A stretch of DNA of 64,000 nucleotides from Anaerolineae bacterium (GTDB taxonomy: Bacteria; Chloroflexota; Anaerolineae; J102): contig JALXCB010000044.1 of assembly GCA_026991225.1 (NCBI GenBank), forward strand, positions 6,490 to 70,489, read 5' to 3'. Positions 5,341-62,960 of this stretch are shown here, in pieces. The position numbers were made by a program, and so were the translations under genes. Position 1 is the first letter of the stretch; the number at the start of each line of letters is the position of its first letter. The notes under the pieces were generated by a model. It worked only from the letters and a program-made list of their open reading frames with translations, had not been told where the DNA came from and made no database searches.

Positions 5341-8300
5341 ATGGTGAACGTCATCCGACAACGTTTGCTCATGGTCATTATGTTGGTCGCGTTGGCAGGC
5401 ATTTTGCTTCATGTGACCGCCAGGTCCAGCGATCTCGCCGTGGCCAGGAACCAGGCCGCGACGCCGCCGACCGCAACCACGCAGCCCAAGCTGAAGGAAT
5501 TCCTCGATGAAGCGCCTTTTCCTCGAATTTATGCTTTCTATCACAACGCGACATCCTGTGTTTCTGGGGGCCAAAAGGCATACTTTGTTGACCAGATGAA
5601 GTATGTCAATGTGGCGGAACTGCACTATCAGTTGGGCGGCGCCAAAACCGAATCCAGTTGGTGGAGATATCGATATTCGAAAATCGATGTCAATGACAAT
5701 GGCAATTGCGATGACCCGGATGACATGCGTGTCGTCGACTGGTTGGAAAAGCAATGGAGAGATATGCCCGCTAACGCCCACGGCGTCTCAATTCCCCACT
5801 ATCAACTGGCGTTTCTGCCTCTTTGGTATTTCAAAGAGGATGATGCCAGTGGTTTCGACGTTATGCACCGCAGAACCATCGATGACTGTGACGCTGCTTA
5901 CACCTTCATTCCTACACCCACCCCTACCCCCACGAATGCAACGCCTCCAACCCCTGGAGGACCGCCCACGTCCACGCCAGTACCCACCGCAACCCCTGAC
6001 GCTGACTATCTTGAGAAACAGGTCTGGGCCTTGCACGCAGCAACGAATGGCGATGTCATGAGATGGCGGGATGGCGCCAATTTGGCGTTAATCAACGTTT
6101 ACGCAGGCACGCCCATTGCGACTTCGGTGGTCATCCGTTGCGACACCCGCATTACCGAAGGACTGATCCCGGCAGAAACACCGGCGCCGCGCACCTATCA
6201 CGAATGGATGCCACTGTGGGTGGATGCCCGCATCGGCGAAACGCAGTTGGATAACGACCCAAATGAAATCAATCCATGGGATGGCATCCGCATCGACTCT
6301 CAGGCCAATCTCTTCTCCTGGGCCAGGCAAGCGGATTTCGATCTCGATGGACATCTCGATATACGGAAAGAAGAGAGTGGTGGATATGACGACAAGAATG
6401 ATACAGCTTTTGGGCGCCATTATCTCGATGATCTCTATCAGCAGGGAGTGGACAAGCTATTCCAAAACATCTATCAATATCATCCTGGCGAATGGCTCAT
6501 GGGAGGCAATGACGCCTGGCATCCCAATGGGAGCAGCCCCGATGACCCCTCTGGCTTTGGCGAACTGCCTAACATGCATTTCACTATCGCTGAAAACTGG
6601 ACGAAGGATTGGGGGAGTAATGGGCAGTACCATTTTATGCGCTGGCCCAATCCCGATGACGGAGGTTATTCTTCCAACGTAACATTCAGCAAAGCCGTTC
6701 GCATCTGGGACAACTGGGCCCATCACGGAAACGGTCGCAAAGGCTATGTCATTCTATCGAAATGTGACGATGCAGCGAATGATTGCTTGTCCCTTCCCAG
6801 CCAGACCGATGAGACAACCTATGGCTGGGATGATATGCACCGGGAATTCCGCTTCAGCCTGGCTGCGGCGCTGATGCTGGATGCATATCATGCGTTTACG
6901 GGCGCGGGCTATGACATGACGCCCTACTGGTACGACGAGTACGCGGTCATTTGGGATGACAGCAAAGCCCAAGCCGCCCGCACCAACGATGAAAAAGCCA
7001 AAGGCATTGGCTGGCTGGGATATCCGATTTCTGCTCCTTTAGAAGTGGACAGTAGCGGACATGTAACGGGTGTCAACTTGTGTTCGGCAATTGATGGCTG
7101 GCGCAAGGCAACGCCTACTCCCACGCCCGCTCCCGGTGAGACTCCGACACCTAAACCTGCAACAGCCTGGATTCGTTACTTCGAGCATGGCGTGGCCATT
7201 TTGAATCCATCCTCCAATGATATTACAGTGGAGTTGGACCCAAACACGACATATTACCGTATTCAGTGTTCCAGTGGAGGCGGCTCAACGGTTAACGCCG
7301 AGGTTGATTGCCACACCAATAACGGCCAGCCAGTGGACAACCATCAGGTGACGGTTGAGGCGCACGATGGTCTGCTCTTGTATGGCGAAGCGAATCAAAC
7401 GGATAAAATCGCCATTAGCGCATCGCAATATGACATCCAATATTGGGAGGGGCCGGAGTTATTGATCGATGACCGGGGCGAACAAACATGGCAATGGGGC
7501 AATAGAACGGACGAGACCAGTCCCACCATCAGCATCGCGAACGATGAACTGCGCGAGGTGGTTTCCGGCAGGTTGATTTTTCACATCAACGACCCCGATT
7601 TGCAAATGGATATCAAAAATGGAGACATTGTCGACGCCTTTTTGAGCTTACGAACAGATGCCAATCTCAATGACGCATCCATGTGGCTTATCGCTCAAAA
7701 ATCCGCCGAAGACGCTGAGGAGAATTTTCAGAAAATCTTATGGATTGATCCCAATCTGCAGGGACAGGGATGGCATCGCTCACCATCATTGCGAGAGGCT
7801 TTGATCGAGCTTGCCGACCAATCTGGATGGAATGGTCATGTCGAATTTTTCCTTGTTCCCACAGCCTTCAACCACCAATTGGTCTTCGACGCTTACGATA
7901 AAGCAGTGACGAACGCCCCTACACTGGTGATTCTCCGGAAAAAAGTGAGAAGCACCCCATGCGTTACGGAGAATACAACGGGGCCTTATCAGGCCACCTA
8001 CCAACACGGCGTCAACGGCTACTATGGCGGCGAGGACACTTACATCGTCACCACCGACTGGGAGCCCCCCACCACCCACGACACCTTCCCCGCGCTCTAC
8101 ATCCGCGTCAACTACCCCAACGAGCAAATTCACTCCTCCCTCATCCGTTTCAACAACGCCACGCTCCCCGCCGGTGCGGAGATCGTCAAGGCCCAGCTCG
8201 ACATGTTCTACGCTGGGCAATCGGTCAATGGCGGCGACCTCACCGCCTATGTGGCCTACACCAAAGAGCCCTGGAAAGCCTCCGAGACCACCTGGGTCAA

Positions 8301-8595: not shown

Positions 8596-8735
8596 TACCT
8601 TGACAATGTCACATTACGTCATTCCGAGGGAGCGAAGCGACCGAGGAATCTAGCCCGCAGGGCGCTTCGCTAGATTCCTCCGCCCTTCGGTCGTCGGAAT
8701 GACGTGCTTGGAGGTAATTTGACATTGTCGAACTA
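8596..8735. repeat. large imperfect palindrome / stem-loop downstream of the 1108-aa gene
   Basis: Arms GGTAACTACCTTGACAATGTCACATTACGTCATTCCG and its imperfect reverse complement flank an internally palindromic loop (GAGGAATCTAGC...GCTAGATTCCTC). Confidence 0.6.
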
Positions 8736-8744
8736 CTCAGGTGT

Positions 8745-8949
8745 CGCCACCACTTTTTGCCGCGAAGACACGAAGGAAACGAGGGCGCAAAGTCATCCAA
8801 AAAAGGTAACTGCTAAGGTAGTTGGCCCCAATCGCCCCTTTTTTGCCACGAAGACACGAAGGAAACGAAGGCGCGAAGTCATTCAAAAAAGATTTTATCC
8901 GTGTTTCCTCGTATCCGTGTCGAGTGAACAGGGCTACGTTAGCAGTTAT
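8745..8949. mobile_element. MITE-A variant copy (8806-8949) preceded by a partial tandem half-copy (8745-8805)
   Basis: GTAACTGCTAAGGT ... ACGTTAGCAGTTAT; internal sequence matches the outer element at 24178; lies between convergent gene ends. Confidence 0.7.
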
Positions 8950-22636: not shown

Positions 22637-22659
22637 GGTGGCTCCTGTTCCGAAGATAG

Positions 22660-22835
22660 CGTTGCGTTGGTTTGCAAAAGCAACTCGAAGCCCGCGTTGG
22701 GCGAGTCTGCAACGGGCGTGATGCGTGAAAACGTGGAACGTGAGAGCGTTACGCATCACGCATTACGCATCACGTGCTTGGCTTCCCGCGCGGCCCTGGC
22801 CGCGGGGCGTTTTCGTTCGTCTCGGCGAACCGCCG
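22660..22835. repeat. family-B REP-like element (CGTGATGCGTGAAAACGTG...TTACGCATCACG hairpin core with GGCCGCGrGGCGTTTTCGTTCG tail)
   Basis: Homologous copies at about 24525-24665 (inverted), 42083-42240, 42425-42525 (inverted), 43720-43830, 45035-45180, 57060-57215; degenerate variants at 10860-10930, 38870-38990, 63120-63195. Confidence 0.75.
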
Positions 22836-22984: not shown

Positions 22985-23012
22985 TTCATTCATTCATTCA
23001 TTCATCCCATTT
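22985..23012. repeat. (CATT)n tetranucleotide microsatellite in an AT-rich promoter region
   Basis: TTCATTCATTCATTCATTCATCC, about 45 bp upstream of a TTGACA and about 80 bp upstream of the PIN/TRAM gene. Confidence 0.6.
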
Positions 23013-23080
23013 ATTCTTCATCATTCCGAGCTGCCGTTTGGCAACAGCTCATTGACAACGCCATAGGAGGTCTTATCCTC

Positions 23081-24181
23081 GTGTTCGATCGGATTTTTCG
23101 CATCCTTGGACTTATCGTTTTCGCCATCATCGGATGGGAGATCGGCGTCATCATGACGGGCGTCTCGAATCCCCTGCAGGACCTGGAATCGCTGAAGTAT
23201 GTGGCGCCTTTGACGTTGGTTGGGGCCGTGGTGGGGTGGATCATCGCTCCCTGGATTACAACCCGCCCCGCGCGTTACGCCATTCGGGTGGTGCGGCAGA
23301 TACCCATCGAGGAAGTCATCGCCGGCAGCATCGGCCTGATCCTGGGCCTGATCGTCTCCGCGCTGGTGGCCATCCCCCTGGCCAAACTGCCCCCGCCCTT
23401 CGGGCCGATTCTGCCCTTCATCGCCAGCATTGTCTTCGGCTACCTGGGCGCGCTCATCCTGGTGTTGCGCCGGGATGATCTGGTGAAGCTGTTCCGTTCC
23501 TTCCAGAAAGAGCGCGGCGATCAGGCCGTGACGACGGAGGATGCGGTCGCACCCGCTCCCTCCCCTCTGCCCCCCGGCCCGACGCCCTTGCTCCTCGACA
23601 CCAGCGTCATCATCGACGGCCGCATCCTGGACGTGGCCAAAACCGGATTCCTTCCCGGCCCCTTGCTGGTCCCCCGCTTCGTCCTCTCCGAACTCCAATA
23701 TATCGCAGATTCCTCCGACGCCCTGCGGCGGGCCCGCGGGCGCCGGGGACTTCAGGTGCTGGATGATCTCCAGAAGCTGGACAGTCCCAGGCTGGAGATT
23801 GTGGACCTGGACGCGCCCGACGTGAAGGAGGTGGATGAGAAGCTCATGGCCCTGGCCCGTCAATATGGCATCGGCATCGTCACCAACGACTACAACCTCA
23901 ACCGGGTGGCTGCTCTCCAGGGCGTGAAGGTGCTCAACCTGAACGATCTCGCCAACGCGGTGAAAGCCATCTACCTGCCGGGCGAGCATCTGCGCCTGCG
24001 CATCATCCAGGAGGGCAAGGAGCCCGACCAGGGGGTGGGCTATCTGGAAGATGGCACCATGGTGGTCGTCGAGCGCGGCCGCGACCTCATCGGCCAGGAG
24101 GTGGAGCTGGAGGTGACCAAAGCCTTGCAGACCAGCGCCGGGCGCATGATCTTCGCCGCGCCCGTGCGAGATTCCGAGTAA
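23081..24181 (+). CDS. PIN/TRAM-domain protein (YacL-like)
   Basis: N-terminal TM helices, central PIN domain, C-terminal TRAM-like domain; stop codon lies inside the inserted MITE. Confidence 0.75.
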
Positions 24182-24471
24182 CCGCTAACGTAGCCCTGTT
24201 CACTCGACACGGATACGAGGAAACACGGATAAAATCTTTTTTTGTAACTGCTAACGTACCCCGGTTAACAAACCACAAAGGGCACAAAGGCGCCAAGAAC
24301 ACGAAGAAAAAAATGTATAAATTCCCCTTTGTGCCTTTGTGTCTTCGTGTTCTTAGTGGTTTTCGGGTGATGACCTTAGTAGTTACCTTTTTAAATGACT
24401 TCGCGCCTTCGTTTCCTTCGTGCCTTCGTGGCAAAAGAGGGGCTACTGGGGCCAACTACCTTAGCAGTTAC
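24178..24471. mobile_element. composite MITE-A: outer variant copy (TSD GATTCCGA) carrying a nested MITE-A (24244-24386)
   Basis: Outer TIRs GTAACCGCTAACGT / ACCTTAGCAGTTAC with TSD 24170-24177 = 24472-24479; inner element has its own TIRs and a degenerate CTTTTT flanking repeat; the outer body matches the copy at 8806-8949. Confidence 0.75.
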
Positions 24472-24714
24472 GATTCCGAATCCAATTTCCACGGCCGGTA
24501 GCGCGCAAAGCCGGCGATACGAGCAACGGCTCGCCGATGCGAACGAAAACGCCTCGCGGCCAAGTCGGCGCGGGAAGCCAAGCACGTAATGCGTGATGCG
24601 TAACGATCTCACGTTTCACGTTTTCACGCATCACGTCCGTAGCAGACTCGCCCAACCTCGTCCTGGCGTTCCTCAATCCTAATCCTGATCCTACTCCTAT
24701 TTATCAAAGCAGCC

Positions 24715-26115
24715 ATGACCCTCAAAGTCTACAACACCCTCACTCGCCAAAAAGAAATCTTCGAGCCCCTGGAACCGGGCGTCGTGCGCATGTATGTGTG
24801 CGGCCCGACGGTCTACTCGGACGCGCACATCGGCCACGCCATGTCGGCCATCGTGTTCGATGTCATCCGCCGCTATCTGGAATACAAAGGCTACAAAGTC
24901 ATCCACGTCATGAACTTCACCGACGTGGACGACAAGATCATCAACAAGGCCCGAGAGCTGGGCGTGGACCCCTTCGAGCTGGCCAACGGCTACATCGAGA
25001 AATTCCTGGAGCAGATGGACGCGCTCCATGTGGAGCGGCCTACGGTCATGCCGCGGGTGTCAGGCACGATTGACGAGATCATCGCCATGGTGCAGGACCT
25101 CATCGACAAAGGCTATGCCTACGAGGTGGATGGCAACGTCTTCTTCCGGGTGCGCAAGGATGAGGATTACGGCAAGCTCAGCCGCCGCAAGCTGGATGAG
25201 ACCATGCGCGGGGATCGGGAGAAGTACGCCGAGGAGTTGAAGGAAGACCCCCTGGACTTCGCCCTGTGGAAGGCGCAGAAATCGCCCGACGAGCCCGCCT
25301 GGGACAGCCCCTGGGGCAAAGGCCGCCCCGGCTGGCATATCGAATGCTCGGCCATGGTGCGCAAACACCTGGGCCCGACCATCGACATTCACGGCGGCGG
25401 CAACGACCTCATCTTCCCCCATCACGAAAACGAGATCGCGCAAAGCGAAAGCTGCAACGACGCGCCCCTGGCCAAATACTGGCTGCACAACGGCATGGTC
25501 GTCCTCAGCGGCGAGAAAATGTCCAAATCCCTGGGCAACCTCATCACCATCGACGAATTTCTGGCCGAACATGACGCGGACGTCTTCCGGCTGCTGGTGC
25601 TGGGCTCCCACTATCGCAAGCCCCTGGTCTATGACGATCACGTGGTGGCGCAGGCCGAAAAGGCTTATCAGCGCCTGCTGGGCGCCCTGCGCCCGCCCAC
25701 GGGCGACAAAACCGAAGGCCCGGACGCGGAGGCGCTGTTGGAGGCCGCGCGCGTCGCCAGGGAGCGCTTCGAGGCGGCCATGGACGACGATTTCAACACC
25801 GCGGCCGCGCTGGGCCACATCTTCGATCTGGTGAAGGCCATCAATACGGCTCGGGATGCGGGCGTGGGCGGCGAGCCCTTCGCCCAGGCCCAGGCCGTGC
25901 TGAAAGAACTGGCGGGCGTGCTGGGGTTGCGTTTGCAGCCCAGGGAAAGCGCGCGGTCGGACGCGGCGCCTTTCATCGATCTGCTGGTGGAGGTGCGGAG
26001 CGAGTTGCGCAAGGCCCGGCAATGGGCTTTGGCCGACATGATCCGCGACCGCCTGGCCGAGTTGGGCGTGGTATTGGAAGACACCCGCGAAGGCACGACA
26101 TGGTCGTGGAAGTAG
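24715..26115 (+). CDS. cysS: cysteine--tRNA ligase
   Basis: [14 protein letters not shown] (HIGH) and KMSKSLGN motifs. Confidence 0.95.
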
Positions 26116-26243
26116 TCTTTATCCAATTGGGGGAACGCTGATGCCGCAGATGGAATGGATGAACTCAGATAAGCATTGAGGGAGTCATCTGCGAAAATCT
26201 GCGTCGCATCAGCGTTCATCAGCGTTCTCATTTCAAACATTTC

Positions 26244-27062
26244 ATGCCCAAATCCCATCGGAAGTCGCGGCCGACGGGCGGCCAACTGCCCAAACGCCCG
26301 CGGGGCGACTTGCTTTACGGGCGCAACGCCGTGCGCGAGGCCCTGCGCGCGGGCCGACGCCATTTCCACGACCTCTACCTGGCCCAGGGCGTCAAGGAAA
26401 GCCCGGTCATCCGCGATATCCAGGCCCTGGCCCGGCAGCGCGGCTTGCCCGTGCAGCGTCTCGACCGCCGCGTGCTGGACGCCTGGCTGGAGGGAGCGAA
26501 TCATCAGGGCGTGGCCTTGCGCGCGGGCGGATACCCCTACGTCGAACCTGATGCCATGCTCGCTCACGCCGCGTCGCTGAACGAGCCCCCCTTCCTGCTC
26601 CTCCTGGACCGGGTGCAGGACCCGCAGAACCTGGGCTCCCTCTTCCGGGCGGCGGAAGCCTTTGGCGTGCATGGGGTCATCCTGCCCAAACGCCGGGCCG
26701 CGCACATCACCCCCGCGGTGGTCAACGCCTCGGCCGGCGCGGTGGAGCACCTGCGGGTGGGGCTGGTCACCAACCTGGTGCAGGCGATGAAGGCGCTGAA
26801 GGACGCGGGGTTGTGGATCGCGGGCCTGGAGGCCCGGGAGGACGCCGTAAGTCTGGATGAAATCGACCTGCGCGGGCCTCTGGCCGTGGTGGTGGGCTCC
26901 GAAGGCTTTGGCCTCTCCCGCCTGACGGCCGAGACCTGCGACTGGCTGGTGAAGCTGCCCATGCGCGGGCGCATCAACTCCCTCAACGCGGCCGTGGCCG
27001 GCTCCATCTTCCTGTTCTGGGCCATGAAGGCTCGCAAAGTTACACAGAGCTCACAGAGCTGA
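26244..27062 (+). CDS. rlmB: SpoU/TrmH-family rRNA 2'-O-methyltransferase (RlmB-like)
   Basis: GRNAVREALRAG N-terminus, C-terminal SPOUT knot motifs. Confidence 0.8.
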   Translation: MPKSHRKSRPTGGQLPKRPRGDLLYGRNAVREALRAGRRHFHDLYLAQGVKESPVIRDIQALARQRGLPVQRLDRRVLDAWLEGANHQGVALRAGGYPYVEPDAMLAHAASLNEPPFLLLLDRVQDPQNLGSLFRAAEAFGVHGVILPKRRAAHITPAVVNASAGAVEHLRVGLVTNLVQAMKALKDAGLWIAGLEAREDAVSLDEIDLRGPLAVVVGSEGFGLSRLTAETCDWLVKLPMRGRINSLNAAVAGSIFLFWAMKARKVTQSSQS

Positions 27063-27268
27063 TTTGGAGCTTCGCAGAGCTTACAGAGATTCATGGATCT
27101 TCGGCCCGGCCATCGACTCAGGCCGGGAGCCTCGCTGGTGGCATTTCCGCTATCGCCAGGGCGTCATCGAAAACTGGGAGGATCGCCCCCTGCCCGCATG
27201 GGTGCGGTTGGGCGGTCGGCTGGCCTGTTGCCGAAATCGGGCGTGAGGCCGCCAAGGCTTCAGGGCGA

Positions 27269-27297
27269 TTTGACAGGGGCGATGAAACCTGTTACAG
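27269..27297 (+). promoter_or_regulatory. sigma70-like promoter of csp
   Basis: TTGACA-17 nt-TACAGT about 145 nt upstream of the csp ATG. Confidence 0.5.
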
Positions 27298-27335
27298 TGT
27301 GTCTCGTAGGCCAACAAGCGCATCTGTCTCAAGTA

Positions 27336-27372
27336 GCAGTCGCCGCAGTTTGGGCGACTGTTTTTTGTTTCA
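27336..27372 (+). promoter_or_regulatory. terminator-like hairpin plus U-tract inside the csp 5' UTR
   Basis: CAGTCGCCGCAGTTTGGGCGACTG followed by TTTTTTGTTT. Confidence 0.45.
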
Positions 27373-27439
27373 GGAGTCATCGGGCCTACGGCAACAATTC
27401 TTTTCCCCAGTTTCACCTTATAGGAGTTAATGTAACACC

Positions 27440-27649
27440 ATGTCTGCACGAGAACAAGGCACCGTCAAATGGTTCAACGCCAGCAAAGGCTACGGCTTCA
27501 TCGCTCGCGATGATGGCGAAGACGTCTTCGTCCACTTCTCCGCTATCCAGATGGATGGCTTCCGCACCCTGGAAGAGGGACAGCGCGTCGAGTTTTCCGT
27601 CGAGAGCGGCCCCAAAGGGCTCCAGGCCCGCGACGTCACCGCCATCTAA
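27440..27649 (+). CDS. csp: cold-shock protein (CspA family)
   Basis: [36 protein letters not shown]; SD TAGGAG; long structured 5' UTR. Confidence 0.95.
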
Positions 27650-27681
27650 ACTAAACGCATTTTGAAATCAGGTGTTTTCGG

Positions 27682-27836
27682 GTAACTGCTAACGTACTTG
27701 ACTTTAGACCGCCAAAAGCCACGAAGGCTCGAAGTTTTTCGAAGCCACGAAGGAAAAAATAAAGAAAAATACGTCGTGCCTTCGCTTTTCTTCGTGTCTT
27801 CGTGGCAAAAAGTGGTCGCGATACCTTAGTAGTTAC
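27682..27836. mobile_element. MITE-A copy (155 bp) with 8-bp TSD GTTTTCGG, inserted in a family-E repeat
   Basis: TIRs GTAACTGCTAACGT / ACCTTAGTAGTTAC; direct repeat 27674-27681 = 27837-27844; the uninterrupted family-E copy at 60293-60475 (reverse complement) has a single GTTTTCGG at this point. Confidence 0.85.
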
Positions 27837-28117
27837 GTTTTCGGCCTTGGCCACCCGGAGCTGAAACTCCGGGCTACGAAACGACGCCGGGTGAACCCGG
27901 CTTTCCGCGGCGCGCGACATGCGCCGTAGCCCCATTGATGGGGCGTCGTTATTAGCCCGCAGGTGAACCTCGGGCGGCGGTGCGGCCAGAGAATCGCCTT
28001 TCATGGATGATCCAATGCAAATCAAAAGCCTTGGTTTCAATTTGCTTTCAGTTTAATGCGTTGAATGCAGACGGATGCCTCACTCGATAGCATCCATTTA
28101 TCTGCTATCATCACGCG

Positions 28118-28152
28118 AAAAGCGCGAGGGTTTCGGCCCTCGCGTTTTTTGA
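28118..28152 (+). terminator. Rho-independent terminator downstream of csp and the family-E repeat
   Basis: AAAAGCGCGAGGGTTTCGGCCCTCGCGTTTTTTGA. Confidence 0.6.
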
Positions 28153-28277
28153 TCTGGTGCACAGCAAACGCGGGGCGATTTCTGGAGCGTCGTCTTTCGA
28201 GAATTGGCGCGACATCGTGTAGAATGAACATGATAGCAAGAGAACCCCCTCTGTCTTCACGTTTCGGGAGGTCAGTC

Positions 28278-29963
28278 ATGCCTTTGTTCAATGAGGAACA
28301 TCTTCAGCGCCTGAGCCAGACGCTCAATCGCTGGAAGGAAACAACCCTGCGCAAGACCCTGGAGAGGCGGCCCGAGCGGTTGAAAAAATTCATGACCACC
28401 TCGTCTCGCCCGGTCAATCGGCTTTACACGCCGCTGGATATCGCGGATTTCGATTACGAGCGGGCGTTGGGAATGCCGGGCGAGTATCCTTTCACTCGGG
28501 GCGTGCACAGCACCATGTATCGGGGGCGCTTGTGGACCATGCGCATGTTTGCGGGGTTCGGCACGGCGGAGGAGACCAATCAGCGTTTCAAATATCTGCT
28601 GGAACAGGGCCAGACGGGCCTTTCCGTGGCTTTCGACATGCCCACCCTCTACGGCTACGACACCGACGCGCCCGAGGCCATTGGCGAATTCGGCAAATGC
28701 GGCGTGGCCATCTCCTCCCTGGCCGATATGGAATTGCTGTTCGATGGCATCCCCATGGGCGAAGTCAGCACCTCCATGACCATCAACTCGCCCGCGGCCA
28801 TCATCTGGGCCATGTATATCGTGGCCGCGGAGAAGCAGGGCTACGACCGCCGCATCCTGCGGGGCACCATCCAGAACGACATCCTCAAGGAATTCATCGC
28901 CCAGAAGGAGTTCATCTTCCCGCCCGATCCCTCCATGCGGCTGGTCACCGACACCATCGAGTTCGGGACCCGCGAGATGCCTTACTGGAACACCATCAGC
29001 ATCAGCGGCTATCATATCCGCGAAGCGGGGGCCACCGCAGCCCAAGAGCTGGCCTTCACCCTGGCCGACGGTTTCGCCTATGTGGAGGCGGCGCTGGAGC
29101 GGGGATTGGATATCGACGCCTTCGCGCCCCGGCTCTCCTTCTTCTTCAATGTCCATAACGACTTCTTCGAGGAGATCGCCAAATTCCGGGCCGCGCGACG
29201 CATCTGGGCCCGGGCCATGAAGGAGAAGTATGGCGCCAAGAACCCGCGCTCCTGGATGCTGCGCACCCACGCCCAGACCTCGGGCGCATCCCTCACCGCG
29301 CAGCAGCCCGAAAACAACATCGTGCGGGTGGCGATTCAGGCCCTGGCCGCGGTGCTGGGCGGCACGCAGAGCCTGCACACCAACAGCATGGATGAGGCCC
29401 TGGCCCTGCCCAGCGAAAAGGCGGTGACTATCGCCTTGCGCACCCAGCAGATCATCGCCCACGAATCGGGCGTGGCCAACACGGTCGACCCCCTGGCGGG
29501 CTCCTACTACATCGAGAAACTGACCGACGAGATGGAAGCGGACGCCAATCGTTATTTCCAGGCCATTGACGCCATGGGCGGCGTCATCCGCGGCATCGAA
29601 TCGGGTTACTTCCAGCGCGAGCTGGCCGAATCCGCCTACCGTTATCAGATGGAGATCGACAATCGGGAGCGGATCGTGGTCGGCGTGAACGAGTATGTGG
29701 CCGAGGAGCCGCTGGAGATTCCGCTGCTGGAAATGGACCCCGAAGGCTACGACCGTCAGGTGGCCCGGCTGAACCGGGTGCGGGCGGAGCGAGACAACGC
29801 CGCGGTGGAAAAAGCCCTGCGCGAGCTGGAGGACGCGGCTCGCGGCGACGAGAACCTCATGGTTCCCATCATCGAGGCGGTGCGGGCCTACGCCACCCTG
29901 GGCGAGATGATGGGCGTCTTCCGCAAAGTCTTCGGCGAATACCACGAGCCTGTGTTCTTCTAA
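28278..29963 (+). CDS. mcmA: methylmalonyl-CoA mutase, catalytic (large) subunit, split form lacking the B12 domain
   Basis: [61 protein letters not shown]; ATG 28278 with GGGAGG SD. Confidence 0.9.
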
Positions 29964-30013
29964 TGGACATGGTGCAATCTTTGTAGTACAATTGTATTGC
30001 AAAGAGGTGCAAA

Positions 30014-30313
30014 ATGACCGAGTTCATCACGACAAATATCCGTCTTCCAGTACAATTGCATCGCGAGCTAAAACGTCGCGCGGCGGAGGAGAACAAAAGC
30101 ATGGCGCAAGTGTTGCGCGAGGCTGCGGTGCAATACATCGCGTCAGCCAAAACTTCCAATCACGAGGAGATGGAAGCAAGAGATGATGATCCTTTGTGGC
30201 TGATCGGGACTGATCCTGTGGATCTGGGGGTGACGGATGCTTCCGTGAACCACGATGTCTATCTTTATGGTCCGCTTTCGGATTCGGCCAAAGCTGAGAT
30301 CACAGAAAAATGA
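30014..30313 (+). CDS. ribbon-helix-helix-type antitoxin (VapB-like)
   Basis: NIRLPVQLHRELKRRAAEENKSMAQVLREAAVQY RHH pattern; 4-bp overlap with PIN gene. Confidence 0.55.
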   Translation: MTEFITTNIRLPVQLHRELKRRAAEENKSMAQVLREAAVQYIASAKTSNHEEMEARDDDPLWLIGTDPVDLGVTDASVNHDVYLYGPLSDSAKAEITEK

Positions 30314-30729
30314 GACCCCTTTTCGTTGATACCGCAGCCTGGTTGGCATTGGAATCTCGAAGGGATCAATACCATGATGTCGCCTTTGCGTTTGCACAAA
30401 ATCAGGCACGAGCATTTCAATGGGTCACGACGAATTGGATATTATCCGAAACCGTGACGATGCTACGCAGACGCGCCAACCATGCCATTGCCGTCCGTTT
30501 TATGGAGCGAGTGCGCGCAAGTAAACGATTGCAGATTGTACGTATTGAGCCTCCCCACGAGGAAAGAGCCTGGGTAATTTTCAAGCGTTATGCCGACAAA
30601 GACTTTGGATTTGTGGATTGCACCAGCTTTGCCGTTATGGAGACCTTTGGCATTGCCGAGGCCTTTTCGTTTGACCATCATTTCCGGCAATTTGGATTTC
30701 AAACGCTTCCCCTTCATGCGTTGAGGTAA
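30310..30729 (+). CDS. vapC: PIN-domain toxin VapC
   Basis: [23 protein letters not shown]...; stop 2 nt before the start of the MCM B12 subunit. Confidence 0.75.
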
Positions 30730-30731
30730 TC

Positions 30732-31136
30732 ATGGATAGAAAAGTACGCGTCTTAGTCGCCAAACCGGGCCTGGACGGCCACGATCGCGGGGCCAAGGTC
30801 ATCGCCCGGGCCCTGCGCGACGCGGGCTACGAAGTCATCTACACCGGCATCCGCCAGACGCCCGAGATGATCGCGGAGGCCGCGCTGCAAGAGGACGTGG
30901 ACGTGGTGGGCCTCTCCATCCTTTCGGGCGCGCACATGGCCCTGGTGCCTCGCGTTATCGAGGAGCTGCGGCGGTTGGGCATGGAGGATGTGGTCGTGCT
31001 GGTGGGCGGCATCATCCCCGATGAGGATGTGCCCGCGCTGCTGGATATGGGCGTGGCGGGCGTCTTCGGCCCCGGCACCCTCACCTCCGAGATCGTGGAA
31101 ACCATCGAGAACGCCCTCGGCCGCGAATTGGCGTAA
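30732..31136 (+). CDS. mcmB: methylmalonyl-CoA mutase B12-binding (small) subunit
   Basis: [33 protein letters not shown]; DxHxxG cobalamin-binding motif. Confidence 0.85.
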
Positions 31137-31152
31137 GGATGTTGGATGGCAG

Positions 31153-31190
31153 TCACCACTGATTACTGAACACTGAACACTGATTACTTT
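31153..31190 (+). promoter_or_regulatory. CACTGA(W)TA heptamer array immediately 5' of the meaB start codon
   Basis: CACCACTGATTACTGAACACTGAACACTGATTACTTTCA-ATG; similar arrays at 1411-1440, 2695-2726, 4048-4077, 11942-11977, 17455-17493, 48757-48800. Confidence 0.5.
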
Positions 31191-31192
31191 CA

Positions 31193-32215
31193 ATGACCCC
31201 ATCCACCGTCCCCGAACTCGTCGACGCCCTGCTCGCGGGCAACCGTCGCGCCCTGGCCCGCGTCATCTCCCATATCGAAAACAACACCGACCTGGCCCGA
31301 CCTCTCCTGGCCGCGCTCTATCCCAGGGCGGGGCGGGCGCACATCATCGGCGTCACCGGCTCTCCCGGCACGGGCAAATCCACCCTGGTCAACGTCCTGG
31401 CCGGGGTCTATCGCCAGCGCGACCTCACCGTGGGCGTCATCGCCATCGACCCCACCAGCCCCTTCAGCGGCGGCGCCCTGCTGGGCGACCGGGTGCGGAT
31501 GCGCGATCTGGCGGGGGATCCAGGCGTATTCATTCGATCCATGGCCACGCGCGGCAGTCTGGGCGGGCTGGCCCAGGCCACCGCGGACGTGATCATGGTG
31601 CTGGACGCGGCCGGCTTCGACCGCATCATCATCGAGACGGTGGGCGTGGGGCAGAGCGAAGTGGAGATCGCCAGCGCCGCCTACACCACCGTCGTGGTGG
31701 AAGCCCCCGGCCTGGGGGATGAAGTCCAGGCCATCAAGGCAGGCGTGCTGGAGATCGCGGATATCTTCGCCGTGAACAAGGCGGACCGGGAGGGCGTGGA
31801 CCGCACGGTCATGGCCCTGAAAATGATGCTCAGCCTGGGCGCGCCCGAGAAGTTCCAGGTGATGCATCATGGCCGGATGCTGCCCGTGGAGATTCCCCAG
31901 GCCCGGACGGAGTCCCATGCCTGGACGCCTCCCATCATCAAGACCATCGCCGTCTCGGGCGAAGGCGCGGTCGAACTGGCCGACGCCATCGAGAATCACC
32001 GCCTCTATCTGGAGCAGAGCGGCGGTCGGGTGTTGCGAGATCGACTGCGGGCCGCCACCGAGCTGCGCATGATTTTGCGCGATTACCTGCTGGAAAAACT
32101 CCTGGCCCGCACGCCCGAAGACGTGCTGAAACAGACCATCGACGCCGTCGCCCGCCGTGAGATCGATCCCTACACCGCGGTGCAACAGTTGGTCGATCAA
32201 GTTCGTAACTGCTAA
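31193..32215 (+). CDS. meaB: methylmalonyl-CoA mutase-associated GTPase MeaB/ArgK
   Basis: GVTGSPGTGKSTLVNVL P-loop; last three codons and stop lie inside a MITE. Confidence 0.9.
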   Translation: MTPSTVPELVDALLAGNRRALARVISHIENNTDLARPLLAALYPRAGRAHIIGVTGSPGTGKSTLVNVLAGVYRQRDLTVGVIAIDPTSPFSGGALLGDRVRMRDLAGDPGVFIRSMATRGSLGGLAQATADVIMVLDAAGFDRIIIETVGVGQSEVEIASAAYTTVVVEAPGLGDEVQAIKAGVLEIADIFAVNKADREGVDRTVMALKMMLSLGAPEKFQVMHHGRMLPVEIPQARTESHAWTPPIIKTIAVSGEGAVELADAIENHRLYLEQSGGRVLRDRLRAATELRMILRDYLLEKLLARTPEDVLKQTIDAVARREIDPYTAVQQLVDQVRNC

Positions 32216-32358
32216 GGTCGCGCCGCCGCTTTTTGCCACGAAGACACGAAGAAAACAAAGGCACGACGTATTTTTCTTTATTTTTTCCTTCGTGGCTTCG
32301 AAAAACTTCGAGCCTTCGTGGCTTCTTGTGGCCTTAAGTCGAGTACGTTAGCAGTTAC
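32205..32358. mobile_element. MITE-A copy with TSD TCAAGTTC, inserted in the last codons of meaB
   Basis: TIRs GTAACTGCTAAGGT / ACGTTAGCAGTTAC; TSD 32197-32204 = 32359-32366; meaB stop TAA lies in the TIR. Confidence 0.85.
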
Positions 32359-32393
32359 TCAAGTTCACTGAACACGGACACGGAGGATCCCCC

Positions 32394-33362
32394 ATGGCCG
32401 AAGGGCTGTATGGCGAACTCGCCGTTGTGAGCGGGTCCTGCCATCCTCAACTCGCCGAAGAGATCTGCGACTATCTGCGCATCCGGCCCACGCCCATGCG
32501 CATTCGCAAATTCCCCAACGAAAATATCTTCGTGCAGATCAAACAGAGCGTTCGGGGCAAAGACGTGTTTCTGATCCAGCCGTTGGGGCGCCCCGTGAAT
32601 GATATGGTCATGGAGTTGCTCATCGCCATCGACGCTCTCCATCGGGACAGCGCCGGGCGCATCACGGCGGTCGTGCCCTACTACGCTTATGGCCGCACTG
32701 ATAAGAAAGATCAGCCCCGCGTGCCCATCACCGCCCGTTTGCTGGCCGACCTGATCACCGTGGCCGGAGCCGACCGCTTCCTCACCATCGACCTCCACGC
32801 CGGGCAGATCCAGGGCTTCTTCACCATTCCCACCGACGAACTCACCGCCCGCTACCTGTTCATCGACTACGTGCGCATGAACAAGCTCACGAACCACGCC
32901 GTGGTCGTGGCGCCCGACGTGGGCGCGGTGCGGCGGGCCCGCAACTTCGCCCACGCCCTCAACCTGCCCCTGGCCATCATCGAAAAACGGCGCAGTCTGG
33001 ATGGCAGCAAGACGGAAATGTACAATCTCATCGGCGAGGTGGCGGGCATGACCTGTATGCTCATCGATGACGAGATCGATACGGCGGGCACGCTGACCCA
33101 GGCCGCCTATTTCATCAAGGAGGCGGGGGCCACCGACGTCATCGCCTTCGCCACCCACGCGGTCTTCTCCGACCCCGCGGCCGAGCGCCTGGGGGATGCG
33201 CCCATCGATCGTCTGGTGGTCACCAATTCCCTGCCCATCCCGCCCGAAAAACGGGAGCGCATCGGCCCTAAACTGGATATCCTCAGCGTGGGGCCGTTGC
33301 TGGGCGAGACCATCCGCCGCATCCACCTGGGCGTCAGCGTGGGCGCGATGTTTCAAGAGTGA
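32394..33362 (+). CDS. prs: ribose-phosphate pyrophosphokinase
   Basis: Prs N-terminal pattern and PRPP-binding loop DDEIDTAGT. Confidence 0.9.
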   Translation: MAEGLYGELAVVSGSCHPQLAEEICDYLRIRPTPMRIRKFPNENIFVQIKQSVRGKDVFLIQPLGRPVNDMVMELLIAIDALHRDSAGRITAVVPYYAYGRTDKKDQPRVPITARLLADLITVAGADRFLTIDLHAGQIQGFFTIPTDELTARYLFIDYVRMNKLTNHAVVVAPDVGAVRRARNFAHALNLPLAIIEKRRSLDGSKTEMYNLIGEVAGMTCMLIDDEIDTAGTLTQAAYFIKEAGATDVIAFATHAVFSDPAAERLGDAPIDRLVVTNSLPIPPEKRERIGPKLDILSVGPLLGETIRRIHLGVSVGAMFQE

Positions 33363-33400
33363 GGAATGGGATTAGGATCAGGATCAGGTTTGGGATTGCG

Positions 33401-33982
33401 ATGAGCGCACATGAGGCCCTGTTCGCCCGCATCCACATTTCGCCCGAAGCGCTGGCCCGCTCGCCCGGGCATGTGAGCGAACGTTTCGCTACGGGCGTGG
33501 CGGCCATGCAGGCCACTCTGGCCTATCTGCGTCCCCTGCCCCCGACGTTGGTGCAGCGCTGGCTGGCGCAGGAGCGTGGCCATATCGTCATCGACGCCTC
33601 GCAGCACAGGTTCGAGCCGGGATCGTGCGCTTTTCGGGGACGATGGTTGGAGGATGTGGCCTGGGTGAAGCTGGCGTTGTTGGTGGATGATCCCATCCGT
33701 TTTCTCACGCCCGTGGGCGCGCTCATCGCCCATCTCATCGGGTGGGGAGAGAGGGGCGGGCGCAGTGACCAGGCCTGGGAGGATTTTCGTCGCGGGGTGT
33801 GGTCTGGGTTCGAGGCGGGCTACGGGCGCAGTGACGCGGCCCGGTGCGATGTGGACGCCTATCTGGCTGAAGGAATCGCCTGGTATCTCGCGGATCGTCG
33901 GAATCTGAACGTCGCCAATCCCCGGCTGGAGAAGCTGCTGCGGGCCACGGTCTTCAACAACGCCTGGTATTCATCGGTTTAG
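33401..33982 (+). CDS. hypothetical protein
   Basis: ORF only; start chosen at MSAHE; no recognisable family. Confidence 0.4.
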   Translation: MSAHEALFARIHISPEALARSPGHVSERFATGVAAMQATLAYLRPLPPTLVQRWLAQERGHIVIDASQHRFEPGSCAFRGRWLEDVAWVKLALLVDDPIRFLTPVGALIAHLIGWGERGGRSDQAWEDFRRGVWSGFEAGYGRSDAARCDVDAYLAEGIAWYLADRRNLNVANPRLEKLLRATVFNNAWYSSV

Positions 33983-38846: not shown

Positions 38847-39231
38847 CGGTTTTGAAAAATAACTTCGCGTTCGTTTACACAAGCAACTCAAAGCCAACGT
38901 TGGGCGAGTCTGCTACGGGCGTCAAACGTCATACGTAAAACGTCAGGACATGACGCATGACGTTTGACGCTGACCGACTGACAAAACGTTGCCTATGCGT
39001 TTGCCGTGTCCCTTTGCCCCCTCCCCGGCCCTTATATGATAAAGCGGGGTGAGGATATATGATAACCGTGTCATATAACTCATCTCCCCCGATACTCGCT
39101 CCGTTCGTGTTCGAGAGAAGGGGACGCCCGAAGCCAGTCAGTTTTCACGAAATAAGCGCTTCTTACCGGGCGAAAACATGTCCCCTGCCCTTCGCTCCTT
39201 TTGACCTCGCTACGTTGGTAGCTACGCCTGC

Positions 39232-42059: not shown

Positions 42060-42316
42060 AGCGTCCTCCTGTTTCGGAAGTGGCGTTGCGTTGGTTTACA
42101 AAAGCAACTCGAAGCCCGCGTTGCGCGAGTCTGCAGCGGACGTGATGCGTGAAAACGTGAAACGTGAGAGCATTACGCATCACGCATTACGTGATTGACT
42201 TCCCGCGCCAACCTGGCCGCGAGGCGTTTTCTGCATCCCAGGATACCCCCCAACCATTCACAAAATGTGATGCGAATGTAAAAAATGTGTCATCCCCCGC
42301 CGCCCAACGGACAAAG

Positions 42317-42872: not shown

Positions 42873-43001
42873 AGTAACTGCTAACGTACTCGACTTCAGG
42901 CCACAAGAAGCCACGAAGGGGAAAATAAAGAAAAATACGTCGTGCCTTCGTTTTCTTCGTGTCTTCGTGGCAAAAAGCGGCGGTGCGACCTTAGCAGTTA
43001 C
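42873..43001. mobile_element. MITE-A short variant (129 bp) with TSD CGATGGGA, 6 nt from the tRNA-Pro 5' end
   Basis: TIRs GTAACTGCTAACGT / ACCTTAGCAGTTAC; TSD 42865-42872 = 43002-43009. Confidence 0.85.
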
Positions 43002-43656: not shown

Positions 43657-43855
43657 TCTCTGGAAGTTGTCATTTGGAATGAAAAGCGCGCGCCAGCAAG
43701 ATGGGCGCGGGCAGCCAAAGCCGTGAAACGTCATGCGTGATGCGTGACCATCTCACGCGTCACGATTTCACGCATCACGCCCGTTGCCGCCTCGCCCAAC
43801 GTCAGCCTGGCGGGCCTTTCGCAGACGGCGCCAACGCTCTGGACGAAACAGCACC

Positions 43856-44992
43856 ATGAAGATCGCCATCGATTACACGCCCGCGGCGTTGCAAGGCGCG
43901 GGGATTGGCCGCTACACCCGGGGGCTGGTGGATGCGCTTCTGCCTTTGTTGGGGGAGGATGACCAACTGACGCTGCTGTACCCGCGCGGGGATGCGCCCT
44001 TCGCCCGCGCGTCCTGGCCCGAGCGCGTACGCGTGCGCCGCCTGCCCCTGCCCGACCGCTGGCAGACCATCCTCTGGCATCGGCTGCGCGCGCCCCTGCC
44101 GGTGGACTGGTGGACGGGCGACGTGGATATCTTCCACGCGCCCAACTTCCTGCTGCCGCCTGTGCGCCGGGCCAAAACCCTGCTCACTATCCACGACCTA
44201 GCCTTCATGGTGCGGCCGCAGTACGCCTTTCCCGACCTGCGCCGCTTTCTGGAAAAGGCCGCGCCCCGCTCCATCGCCCGCGCCGACCATATCCTGGCCG
44301 ACTCCGAGGCCAGCCGTCAGGACGCCATCCGCCTGTTCGGGTTGGAGCCGCAGCGGGTGACGGTGGTGGGCGCGGGGGTGGAGCCCCGCTTCCGGCCCCT
44401 GCCGCCCGAAGAGACCGCAGCGGTGCGGGGGAAGTACGGCCTGGACGGGCCCTTCGTCCTCTCGGTGAGCACCATCGAGCCCCGCAAAAATTTCGACGGG
44501 CTGGTGCGGGCCTTCGCCCAGGCCCGACGGGAGGCCCGTTTCCCCCATCATCTCGTCATTGCCGGGGGCAAAGGCTGGCTCTACGAGCCGGTCTTTCGGG
44601 CAGTGGAGGAGGAAAACGCGGGGGATATCGTTCACTTTTTGGGATTCGTTCCGGACGAAGACCTGCCCGCGCTGTACAACCTGGCCGAGCTGTTCGCTTT
44701 TCCAAGCCATTACGAGGGCTTTGGCCTGCCCGTATTGGAAGCGCTGGCCTGCGGAACCGCGGTGATCTGCACCGACGTCAGCAGTCTGCCCGAGATCGCG
44801 GGCGATGCGGCCCTGCTCATCCCGGCCGACGATCACGACGCCCTGGTTGTGGGCCTCCTCCGCCTGCTCACCGACGCCGACGCGCGGGACGAGTTGGCCG
44901 CCCGCGGGCCTGCCCGGGCTGCTCACTTCACATGGGACGCGGCCGCGCGCCGCTTGTGGGACGCCTATCGGGCCGTGATTGGATTGCGTTGA
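43856..44992 (+). CDS. GT4 (group 1) glycosyltransferase
   Basis: MKIAIDYTP...; C-terminal EGFGLPVLEALACGTAVICTD motif. Confidence 0.85.
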   Translation: MKIAIDYTPAALQGAGIGRYTRGLVDALLPLLGEDDQLTLLYPRGDAPFARASWPERVRVRRLPLPDRWQTILWHRLRAPLPVDWWTGDVDIFHAPNFLLPPVRRAKTLLTIHDLAFMVRPQYAFPDLRRFLEKAAPRSIARADHILADSEASRQDAIRLFGLEPQRVTVVGAGVEPRFRPLPPEETAAVRGKYGLDGPFVLSVSTIEPRKNFDGLVRAFAQARREARFPHHLVIAGGKGWLYEPVFRAVEEENAGDIVHFLGFVPDEDLPALYNLAELFAFPSHYEGFGLPVLEALACGTAVICTDVSSLPEIAGDAALLIPADDHDALVVGLLRLLTDADARDELAARGPARAAHFTWDAAARRLWDAYRAVIGLR

Positions 44993-45224
44993 AGATGGAG
45001 TGATCGCTGGTCGTTGAAGGATCGCCAGGATTACGTTGGCCGAGGCGGCAACGGGCGTGATGCGTGAAAACGTGATACGTGAGGTCTTCACGCATCACGC
45101 ATGACGTTTCACGTCCTTGGGTTCCCGCGCCACACGGGCCGCGAGGCATTTTCATCGGTATGGGCGAGCTTTCGCCTGTGTCGACCGATTTGTAAGCGGA
45201 TGCGTCCCAAATTATTGGCAGACA

Positions 45225-45360
45225 TTTACCGAGTAAACTCGGGCTCTTTAGGCGCTTCGCGCCAGTGGTCGCCCTTCGGCGACCATTTGTTGGCATAATT
45301 CTGGACGGCGTAGACCGTCCACTGGCCGCAGGCCTGAAGAGTTCGACTTCAGTCGGCTGG
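45225..45360. repeat. family-F repeat (CGAGTAAACTCGGGCTCTTTAGGCGCTTCGCGCC...GTCCACTGGCCGCAGGCCTG...)
   Basis: Second copy at 62770-63100 interrupted by a MITE-A. Confidence 0.7.
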
Positions 45361-52105: not shown

Positions 52106-52382
52106 GAATGGATATTATCGAACCAGAGGGGGCGATCACGCAAATCTGCGTTGAAAATAGAGTTTGGTAAACCGGGAAACCGGTAGACCAGTAGACCGGG
52201 AGGGTGAGCGAATCGGCCCGGTTTCCCTGGTTTCCTGGTTTACCGGTTTACGGGGCTACGTAGCCCGCCATTTTCATCCGTATCGGCAAGCGATCGGTCG
52301 TGTCGCCTGCGTTGAAAACAGGATTAGAGAACGCGGATGACGCAGATTGAAACGGATGAGCGCTGATAATAAAGAAAAAATC

Positions 52383-52535
52383 GTAACTACTAACGTACTC
52401 GATTTCAGGCCTCGAAAAGCCACGAAGGCTCGAAGTTTTTCGAAGACACGAAGGAAAAATAAAGGAAAAACTTCGTGCCTTCGTTTTTCTTCGTATCTTC
52501 GTGGCAAAAAGCGGTGGCGAGACCTTAGTAGTTAC
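52383..52535. mobile_element. MITE-A copy with TSD AAAAAATC, inserted in a family-C repeat
   Basis: TIRs GTAACTACTAACGT / ACCTTAGTAGTTAC; TSD 52375-52382 = 52536-52543. Confidence 0.85.
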
Positions 52536-52738
52536 AAAAAATCTGTGAAAATCATCTGCGAAAATCAGCGTCGCATCCGCATTATCAGCGTTCTCCTTTT
52601 CATCCGTATCGGCGAGCTGTCGCTCGGGCCGAGTGCGTTGAAGATAGAAGGGCAGGCTTGCGACGTTGGCGGGCGGCTTTGTACAATAGCGAAGACATTT
52701 CCAACCCCTCATTCCCTATCCAGACACGCCAACATCCC

Positions 52739-55019: not shown

Positions 55020-55115
55020 CGTTCCGAAAAGAAAAAAGCTGTGAAAATCATCTGCGAAAATCAGCGTCGTATCCGCGTCATCTGCGTTCCCATTTTCATC
55101 CGTATCGGCGAGCTT
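55020..55115. repeat. family-C repeat (GAAAATCATCTGCGAAAATCAGCGTCG...CCATTTTCATCCGTATCGGCGAGCT)
   Basis: Copies at 52536-52625, 26150-26230 (partial), inverted partial at 52262-52375; shares the ...TTTTCrTyCGTATCGGCGAGCT module with family B. Confidence 0.7.
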
Positions 55116-55244
55116 TCGTTCCACCTTAAATTGCAGACGCCTCAAATCCAACTTGACGAATCTTCGAGAACCGTTTATCATATCCCCTCATTATCTTGAA
55201 TTCTTTACACAAAAAGGATTTTCACAACAGGTTCTTTTGAAGGG

Positions 55245-57013: not shown

Positions 57014-57282
57014 GTTGGCCTCCTGCTTTGAAAATAGGATTCGGATTGAGGATCGTCAGGACAACGTTGAGCGAGCCTGCAACGGACGTGATGCGTGAAA
57101 ACGTGAAACGTGAAGGCCTTACGCATCACGCATTACGTTTCACGGGCCGGCTTCCTGCGCGGCCCTGGCCGCGATGCGTTTTCGTTCGTATCGGCGAGCT
57201 TTGGATCAGGGTGCTCGCTTCAAAGAAAAAGGGGATGGCAGCAAACGGCGACCATCCCCTGAGTCAGCGATAGAACGGCGGA

Positions 57283-59544: not shown

Positions 59545-59697
59545 GTAACTACTAAGGTCGCGACACCACTTTTTGCCACGAAGACACGAAGAGAACGAAG
59601 GAGCGAAGCCTTCTTCTTTATTTTTCCTTCGTGTCTTCGTAAAACTTCGAGCCTTCGTGGCTTCTTACGACCTAAAGTCGAGTACGTTGGCAGTTAC
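59545..59697. mobile_element. MITE-A copy 30 bp upstream of the SH3-protein gene
   Basis: TIRs GTAACTACTAAGGT / ACGTTGGCAGTTAC; imperfect flanking repeat GAACTTAT / GAACTATC. Confidence 0.75.
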
Positions 59698-62796: not shown

Positions 62797-62960
62797 GTAA
62801 CTGCTAAGGTATCGCCACCACTTTTTGCCACGAAGACACGAAGAAAAGCCAAGGCACGACGTATTTTTCTTGATTTTTCCTTCGTGTCTTCGAAAAACTT
62901 CGAGCCTTCGTGGCTTTTGGCGGCCTAAAGTCAAGTACGTTAGCAGTTACAAACTCGGGC
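62797..62960. mobile_element. MITE-A copy with TSD AAACTCGG, inserted in a family-F repeat between HMGCS and thiolase
   Basis: TSD 62789-62796 = 62961-62968; the uninterrupted family-F copy at 45225-45360 has a single AAACTCGG. Confidence 0.85.

Follow-up and report, generated by a model that had tools for sequence, protein, structure and literature searches.

The window analysed here is a stretch of 64,000 nucleotides from a Chloroflexota genome (Anaerolineae bacterium, contig JALXCB010000044.1), and it carries meaB, encoding a MeaB GTPase, as well as a gene for a YacL-like protein with PIN and TRAM domains (hereafter the PIN/TRAM gene), each of which ends inside a copy of a miniature inverted-repeat transposable element (MITE). 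An earlier note on this DNA had claimed that MITE insertions rewrote the C-termini of both proteins and provided the stop codons of their genes. The two sites, their natural alleles with and without the elements, and the element family itself are described below, and the insertion of MITEs into the last codons of meaB and the PIN/TRAM gene, which now take their stops from the elements, is given a probability of about 0.9.

The 3' ends of meaB and the PIN/TRAM gene

The product of meaB matches the family profile PF03308 over residues 21-305 (E=1.7e-92; 309.7 bits against a cut-off of 23.1), and MeaB homologues in the PDB are found with E values down to 1e-60, the solved structures aligning up to residue 336. 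The gene adjoins the genes for the methylmalonyl-CoA mutase subunits, and the same product of 340 amino acids (aa) has been called in NCBI, JGI, and ENA records (P0121). Its 3' end reads ...GTC GAT CAA GTT CGT AAC TGC TAA and is translated as VDQVRNC-stop, its final 11 bases being element-derived and containing the stop TAA (32213-32215), which lies inside the inverted repeat. This MITE has the termini GTAACTGCTAAGGT on the left and GTAACTGCTAACGT (reverse complement) on the right; its end sequences are GTAACTGCTAAGG... and ...CGTTAGCAGTTAC, the right end in a longer form being ...ACGTTAGCAGTTAC, and it lies between two copies of TCAAGTTC (Table 1). Through the insertion the spacer between meaB and prs has grown from 22 to 178 nt, with GGAGGA kept at 32379-32384, and the RNA of the element is predicted to form a long hairpin (-58.9 kcal/mol, z = -4.6).

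The PIN/TRAM protein contains a PIN domain (PF01850, 41.5 bits) at residues 171-278 and a TRAM domain (PF01938, 25.2 bits) at residues 301-352, both above their cut-offs; its PIN part matches TTHA0540 (3ix7) with E = 9e-32, and the same 366-aa product is present in public records (P0245). The gene ends ...GAT TCC GAG TAA (VRDSE-stop), its last sense codon GAG straddling the junction between host and element, the element opening with gTAA and the stop occupying 24179-24181. Here the element is composite: it starts with GTAACCGCTAACG and finishes with CCTTAGCAGTTAC, and when the nested copy and one duplication are removed, the remaining outer MITE of 143 bp agrees with the intact copy at 8806-8949 in 136 of 144 positions, which identifies 24178-24471 as one element nested in another. 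The nested MITE is itself flanked by an imperfect duplication (CTTTTTTT versus CTTTTTAA). The insertion has lengthened the spacer between the PIN/TRAM gene and cysS.

The earlier note's element positions, duplications, open reading frame (ORF) ends, and translations at both sites, among them the meaB stop within the terminal inverted repeat and the PIN/TRAM stop in the gTAA of the outer MITE, were all verified in the sequence.

Table 1. Positions of the genes, elements, and duplications in the window.
Feature	Coordinates	Strand	Basis or remark
Degenerate half MITE copy, directly abutting 8806-8949	8729..8805		Direct sequence
Intergenic MITE copy, same subfamily as outer element at 24178	8806..8949		No duplication; abuts degenerate half copy
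PIN/TRAM (YacL-like) coding sequence, 366 aa	23081..24181	+	ORF list; Pfam
Left 8-bp duplication GATTCCGA, PIN/TRAM site	24170..24177		Single copy in L081, L083
Composite element, 294 bp, PIN/TRAM site	24178..24471		Outer ~143-bp MITE (second subfamily) split by nested copy
Nested MITE, 143 bp, third internal variant	24244..24386		In A/T-rich centre of outer MITE
Right duplication copy GATTCCGA, PIN/TRAM site	24472..24479		Direct sequence
Orphaned former PIN/TRAM 3' end (codons ...SNFHGR + TAG), now untranslated	24480..24501	+	Translated in empty alleles
Intergenic MITE copy, duplication GTTTTCGG, just past cold-shock protein gene	27682..27836		Absent from L082
meaB coding sequence (MeaB GTPase, 340 aa)	31193..32215	+	ORF list; PF03308
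Left 8-bp target-site duplication TCAAGTTC, meaB site	32197..32204		Single copy in empty allele L082
MITE copy, 154 bp, meaB site	32205..32358		Core subfamily, CACGAAG/CTTCGTG arms
Right duplication copy TCAAGTTC, meaB site	32359..32366		Direct sequence
Displaced ancestral meaB stop TGA	32369..32371	+	Still used in L082 (caa gtt cgc TGA; P0243, 338 aa)
prs (ribose-phosphate pyrophosphokinase), downstream of meaB	32394..33362	+	ORF; Pfam Pribosyltran_N/Pribosyl_synth on called genes
Intergenic MITE copy, 26-bp internal deletion, duplication CGATGGGA	42874..43001		Alignment
Intergenic MITE copy, duplication AAAAAATC	52383..52535		Alignment
Intergenic MITE copy, 58 bp past gene end, imperfect duplication	59545..59697		Alignment
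Intergenic MITE copy, duplication AAACTCGG	62797..62950		Alignment

Filled and empty alleles in related populations

The best species-level genome matches for MeaB are metagenome-assembled genomes (MAGs) labelled Caldilineae or Anaerolineae (Chloroflexota), with at most 91% aa identity. Several metagenome assemblies and two MAGs contain contigs that match the window exactly or almost exactly, and one of the contigs (L091) is labelled hydrothermal vent metagenome. The filled meaB junction is identical in six independently assembled contigs, save one base inside the element in L087, and the filled PIN/TRAM junction with its nested copy was seen again in three contigs (L086, L090, and L091). All four filled PIN/TRAM alleles, that of the window included, carry the nested copy, and among them no intermediate with the outer MITE alone was found. 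Filled alleles are also carried by the MAGs GCA_054007015.1 and GCA_027029385.1. Contigs with a filled allele share 97.8-100% identity with the window; the empty alleles come from a sister lineage with ~94-97% DNA identity to it.

At the PIN/TRAM site, the 90%-identity protein cluster comprises 366-aa members ending VRDSE and 372-aa members ending VRDSESNFHGR (P0001, which is 97% identical to the window protein, and P0248). The empty DNA (L081, L083) reads gattccgaatccaattt[c/t]cacgg[c/a]cggtag, in a longer excerpt ...gtgcgaGATTCCGAatccaattt[c/t]cacgg[c/a]cggtag, with a single GATTCCGA, and these natural alleles match to the base the end ...VRDSESNFHGR-stop that the earlier note had predicted for the site before insertion. 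The more distant P0002 (87% identity) also ends ...SESNFHGR, which makes the uninterrupted state ancestral at this site.

The meaB cluster includes a protein of 338 aa (P0243). On its contig, L082, the sequence is ...ggtcgaTCAAGTTCgctgaatactgacacggaggatcccccatg; TCAAGTTC occurs once there, and the stop is at the predicted TGA. This is the only natural empty meaB allele found, and it ends GTT CGC TGA (VDQVR-stop); the reconstructed end VDQVH-stop was therefore right in the position of the TGA, as L082 and P0243 demonstrate, and wrong in its last residue, the natural allele having R (CGC, not CAC). The ancestral MeaB end, as judged from these alleles, would have been VDQV followed by R or H and a stop, which the element turned into VDQVRNC-stop. 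BLAST breakpoints between the window and the empty contigs overlap by 8 nt at the PIN/TRAM site and by 9 nt at meaB, that is, by the duplication, with one additional chance base at meaB. A gap in the BLAST alignment indicates that L082 is also without the stretch holding the copy at 27682. Because the sister-lineage contigs are without them, at least three insertions and one nested insertion were gained in the lineage of the window within 12 kb.

The consequences for the proteins are small. The PIN/TRAM protein loses the six residues SNFHGR (372 to 366 aa), and MeaB gains two residues (338 to 340 aa) or, counted from the alternative ancestral end, has its H replaced by RNC. The tails of MeaB orthologues past ...DPYTAV..LV range from 2 to ~17 residues with no common sequence, those of PIN/TRAM orthologues past the conserved SAGRMIFA.P from 2 to 12 residues, and for either protein nearly every orthologue has a tail of its own length and sequence. 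The Pfam domains stop at residue 305 of 340 in MeaB and at residue ~352 of 366 in the case of TRAM, before the altered tails. Both breakpoints thus lie in unconstrained tails past the folded domains, which explains why the insertions were tolerated and persisted, and both are probably near-neutral. In describing the C-termini as rewritten, the earlier note was correct in that the ends have changed, and it overstated the extent, which amounts to minus six and plus two residues in hypervariable tails. Likewise, its element-derived 3' ends stand, while the label housekeeping that it gave to the two genes is loose, MeaB being an accessory chaperone of methylmalonyl-CoA mutase.

Several other differences were observed in the neighbourhood of the two genes. 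The spacer between the PIN/TRAM gene and cysS in L081 holds a different insert of ~260 bp, and in L083 cysS is separated from the SpoU methylase gene by a BrnT/BrnA toxin-antitoxin pair (4987-5530; window ~26116-26252), which is not present in the window. The spacers around meaB (31137-31192 and 32367-32393) consist of short CACTGA/TTACTGA/ACACGG-like reiterations (cactgattactgaacactgaacactgattac); reiterations recur in the same spacers of related MAGs, including L001 and L002 downstream of meaB, with a different sequence. In lineages whose MeaB is 84-85% identical, L005 carries, 66 bp past the meaB stop, an element of 174 bp with the same termini (2420-2593), and L006 has a CACGAAG-rich fragment at ~8662-8700 in the meaB-prs spacer; this spacer has been struck independently in these other lineages. 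Between the genes for the mutase large subunit and the B12-binding subunit, the window holds at 29964-30689 a 99-aa gene and a 139-aa PIN (VapC-like) gene, a pair that is wholly absent from L082 and looks like a toxin-antitoxin cassette inserted within the mutase operon. A disruption of the VapC-like gene (~30270-30690) was considered and ruled out, the ORF being intact and only the gene calling differing.

The MITE family and its stop codons

The sequence GTAACTGCTAA occurs 18 times in the window when up to two mismatches are allowed, and these occurrences form nine inward-facing pairs that are 128-294 bp apart; shuffled sequences gave a mean of 3.7, and none of 100 reached 18. The inverted repeats of the family span ~14 bp with the consensus GTAAC(T/C)(G/A)CTAA(C/G)GT, and GTAACTGCTAA(G/C)GT is found at either terminus of each of the nine copies in the window and of 45 copies from outside it, which establishes it as a terminal inverted repeat. 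Perfect 8-bp duplications flank six of the nine window copies. Many further copies, concentrated in few JGI metagenomes, were found by an exact-match scan with one repeat end, and for the 45 paired copies on such metagenome contigs the 8-bp duplication is perfect in 25 and has one mismatch in 7. Family copies are also present in the related MAGs L002, L005, and L008. The elements are small (128-155 bp in the window, up to ~207 bp elsewhere) and without a transposase gene. Together with the inverted repeats, the fixed-length duplication, and the mobility evident from filled and empty alleles, this identifies them as MITEs. No account of this MITE family, or of similar MITEs in Chloroflexi, was found in the literature.

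Alignment of the copies distinguishes a core subfamily, the arms of which are rich in CACGAAG/CTTCGTG, from other subfamilies that have only the ~14-bp ends in common with it, a pattern that would be expected if one transposase moves several non-autonomous derivatives. The half copy that abuts 8806-8949 probably explains the lack of a target duplication there.

Read from either end, the element begins G-TAA-CTGC-TAA, with TAA at element positions 2-4 and 9-11, and two of the three reading phases consequently terminate within its first 11 bases. When two host bases stand in the split codon, the stop falls at element position 2 in nine of nine copies and in both orientations; when one host base does, it falls at position 9, after two element codons, in 17 of 18 cases, the exception being the reverse end of 59545-59697, which reads GCCAA and stops at position 24. 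With the junction in register, no stop is reached for 10-98 codons, and in 17 of 18 cases for at least 26. Of the two genes, PIN/TRAM terminates at TAA 2-4 of its element and meaB at TAA 9-11. These stops are a by-product of the transposase-binding ends, and no sign was found that the TAA triplets in the repeat ends are under selection. It is quite improbable that the TAA pair is a selected, self-terminating trait that lets the element settle in last codons within a compact, G+C-rich genome without long aberrant tails, the hairpin in the 3' untranslated region then being co-opted for transcript ends or stability between meaB and prs and between the PIN/TRAM gene and cysS.

The targets are A/T-richer: the target 8-mers have a mean G+C content of 40%, against 61% for random 8-mers of the window, about six standard deviations lower than sets of such random 8-mers, and no positional consensus was apparent among them. 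In a survey of 57 distinct copies, only those in meaB and the PIN/TRAM gene overlap a long ORF with high third-position G+C, and a further eight lie 6-23 bp downstream of a stop codon. A bias to gene 3' ends was not detectable with the gene filter used, the copies having 31 3' flanks and 34 5' flanks within 600 bp. The two gene-end cases mark the margin of a normal intergenic distribution, filtered by host tolerance, and no special targeting is evident. A possible third coding overlap, between the copy at 42874-43001 and a minus-strand ORF (third-position G+C 0.71), was dismissed, since that ORF is a spurious antisense frame facing a better plus-strand gene.

The region of the cold-shock protein gene (27322-27680, plus strand) matches the Rfam cspA thermoregulator with 70.9 bits (E = 1.2e-16), just under the gathering score of 78; the MITE at 27682-27836 starts right past this match, and ~400 bp (27650-28050) are absent from L082. 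Other short dispersed intergenic repeats were observed in the window. One family lies at 22642-22767, 38856-38929, 42066-42191, 44981-45106, and 57012-57137, and further families lie at 24584-24673 and 43728-43817, at 52271-52321, 52536-52647, and 55032-55121, and at 45235-45284 and 62951-63000; one of these other families sits in the PIN/TRAM-cysS spacer beside the composite MITE. At 1308-4426, blocks of 141-300 nt are repeated three times with a period of ~1300-1380 nt and include short repeats of the GGCCAGAGG/GGTCAGAGG type, which suggests tandemly repeated gene modules.

Competing explanations and relation to known elements

In the favoured sequence of events, a non-autonomous cut-and-paste MITE family has been active in a lineage of uncultured hydrothermal Caldilineae/Anaerolineae, perhaps mobilised in trans by an IS66-like transposase. 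Two copies inserted into A/T-richer 8-mers within the last codons of meaB and the PIN/TRAM gene, the latter in the TAA 2-4 phase with loss of SNFHGR, the former in the TAA 9-11 phase with R-stop or H-stop becoming RNC-stop, and a second copy later entered the centre of the PIN/TRAM element.

A possible source of the transposase is suggested by the element ends. IS66-family repeats begin GTAAGCG or GTAACCG and the family makes 8-bp direct repeats (PMC11946415, PMC12888890). The present family resembles IS66 in that its repeats begin GTAAC(T/C)G (GTAACTG or GTAACCG) and in its 8-bp duplication. It differs in that the agreement is limited to the first 5-8 bases, with nothing similar beyond base 8, in that ~14 bp are common to both ends as compared to 20-30 bp in IS66, and in that the window and 208 fetched loci yielded neither TnpA/TnpB/TnpC genes nor a complete element bounded by such ends. 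Judged by these termini, an IS66-derived parent is a tentative proposal with a chance somewhat short of even. The parent candidates seen proved to be MITE-sized pairs, degraded copies, or chance pairs without duplications (L120, L141, and L146), and no transposase was found beside unpaired repeats when the inward ORFs on high-G+C contigs were inspected.

Some observations count against the insertion reading. An autonomous parent was not found among repeat pairs 0.3-5 kb apart in the window, 91 related loci, and 117 metagenome loci, and the distance statistics given above use a crude gene filter (ORF length and third-position G+C). Moreover, the polarity at meaB is deduced from a single empty allele together with the logic of the duplication, the tails of distant orthologues being unrelated. 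Finally, filled and empty meaB alleles differ by three bases within the 10 nt downstream of the duplication, which makes the residue at the insertion (H or R) uncertain; the ancestral last residue may have been R rather than H, in which case the element adds only N-C.

The elements might instead carry captured 3' ends of host genes, in which case orthologues in element-free genomes would be expected to end as the window genes do. None of those compared does so; they end differently, as a single target copy predicts. In addition, the GTAACTGCTAA repeat bounds every copy, including the intergenic ones, and the overlap between gene and element consists of only 4 (PIN/TRAM) or 11 (meaB) bases of the inverted repeat. 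Nothing was found in favour of capture, which can be practically discounted. An assembly artefact, with repeats misjoining contigs at gene ends, deserves attention because MITEs are classic break and join points in short-read metagenome assemblies, and L090 and L091 indeed end inside the composite element. However, full junctions with both flanks and duplications are present in six independent assemblies for meaB and in at least two for the PIN/TRAM gene (the window and L086), obtained from different samples and with different assemblers, with synteny kept on both sides. Assembly error is excluded for both junctions.

The filled state could also be ancestral, the sister lineage having lost its elements by precise excision; only one empty meaB allele (L082) is known, and no outgroup with its tail was found. 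This is very unlikely, however, given that P0002, at 87% identity, has the SESNFHGR tail of the empty PIN/TRAM alleles. The empty sites hold exactly one target copy and no footprint, and cut-and-paste excision usually leaves a footprint. Furthermore, filled alleles are confined to sequences at least 97.8% identical to the window, with the empty ones at ~94-97%, and three precise events in 12 kb (24178, 27682, and 32205) would be unparsimonious.

That the insertions were kept for a function, with the hairpin serving to process, stabilise, or attenuate the transcript and so to uncouple prs from meaB and cysS from the PIN/TRAM gene, or with adaptive new tails, draws on the stability of the hairpin, on the filled meaB allele being alike, save one base, in six assemblies from several samples, and on the independent insertion of a related element into the meaB-prs spacer of L005. 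Other bacterial MITEs are RNase III substrates or mRNA regulators (PMC2229807; for Coxiella PMC5896051). Nonetheless, terminator-like and promoter-like sites around both insertions did not exceed shuffle expectation, and an Rfam scan of 23000-33500 (E up to 1) gave no family over the element. Occupancy is not conserved past ~2% divergence, the sister lineage functions without the elements, copies have no 3' over 5' flank bias, and hypervariable tails make it unlikely that a specific tail matters. A retained function is on these grounds unlikely, and insertion of MITEs with little effect on the host is the preferred explanation.

The phenomenon has a close parallel in Coxiella burnetii, where QMITE1 and QMITE2 overlap functional gene 3' ends by 1-50 bp (ubiB, pntAA, mutT, nagZ, ruvB, recN, ogt, and others), where the C-terminus of enhC (33 aa) in the Dugway strain comes from QMITE2, and where the authors could not determine the effect of the 3'-end overlaps (PMC5896051). 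Both are cases of bacterial MITEs with inverted repeats and duplications at gene 3' ends; the sequences are unrelated, and the hosts are a gammaproteobacterial pathogen and free-living hydrothermal Chloroflexota, respectively. In contrast to the QMITEs, natural empty alleles here provide the exact state before and after insertion. ERIC/RU-1, the Rickettsia palindromic elements, and the Neisseria 107-bp Correia form have been found fused to ORFs (Delihas review, PMC2229807), and they are likewise small non-autonomous repeats that are tolerated in coding regions; however, their open frames add in-frame peptides, whereas the family described here stops two of three phases at once. RUP and the 155-bp Correia form also carry stops, yet they are reported almost exclusively from intergenic positions. 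REPs owe their mobility to RAYT (Y1) transposases and are not known to duplicate their target. Like REPs and BIMEs, the elements described here are short, abundant, hairpin-forming intergenic repeats near gene ends. They are not of REP size: REPs are palindromes of 20-40 bp (PMC3733652), whereas the present elements measure ~150 bp, have inverted repeats, and are flanked by an 8-bp duplication.

The family is therefore new, while MITE-derived gene 3' ends as such have already been documented in other bacteria such as Coxiella. What is known of MITE biology, of MeaB, and of PIN/TRAM proteins is unchanged by these findings, the changes in the proteins being tiny and situated in freely varying tails. 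The two sites provide a clean documented case, with filled and empty alleles of the same sites in related natural populations and C-termini that are known to the base. For the annotation of Chloroflexota MAGs, it follows that gene ends falling in GTAACTGCTAA repeats are element-derived, and the same family explains many of the contig breaks in these genomes.

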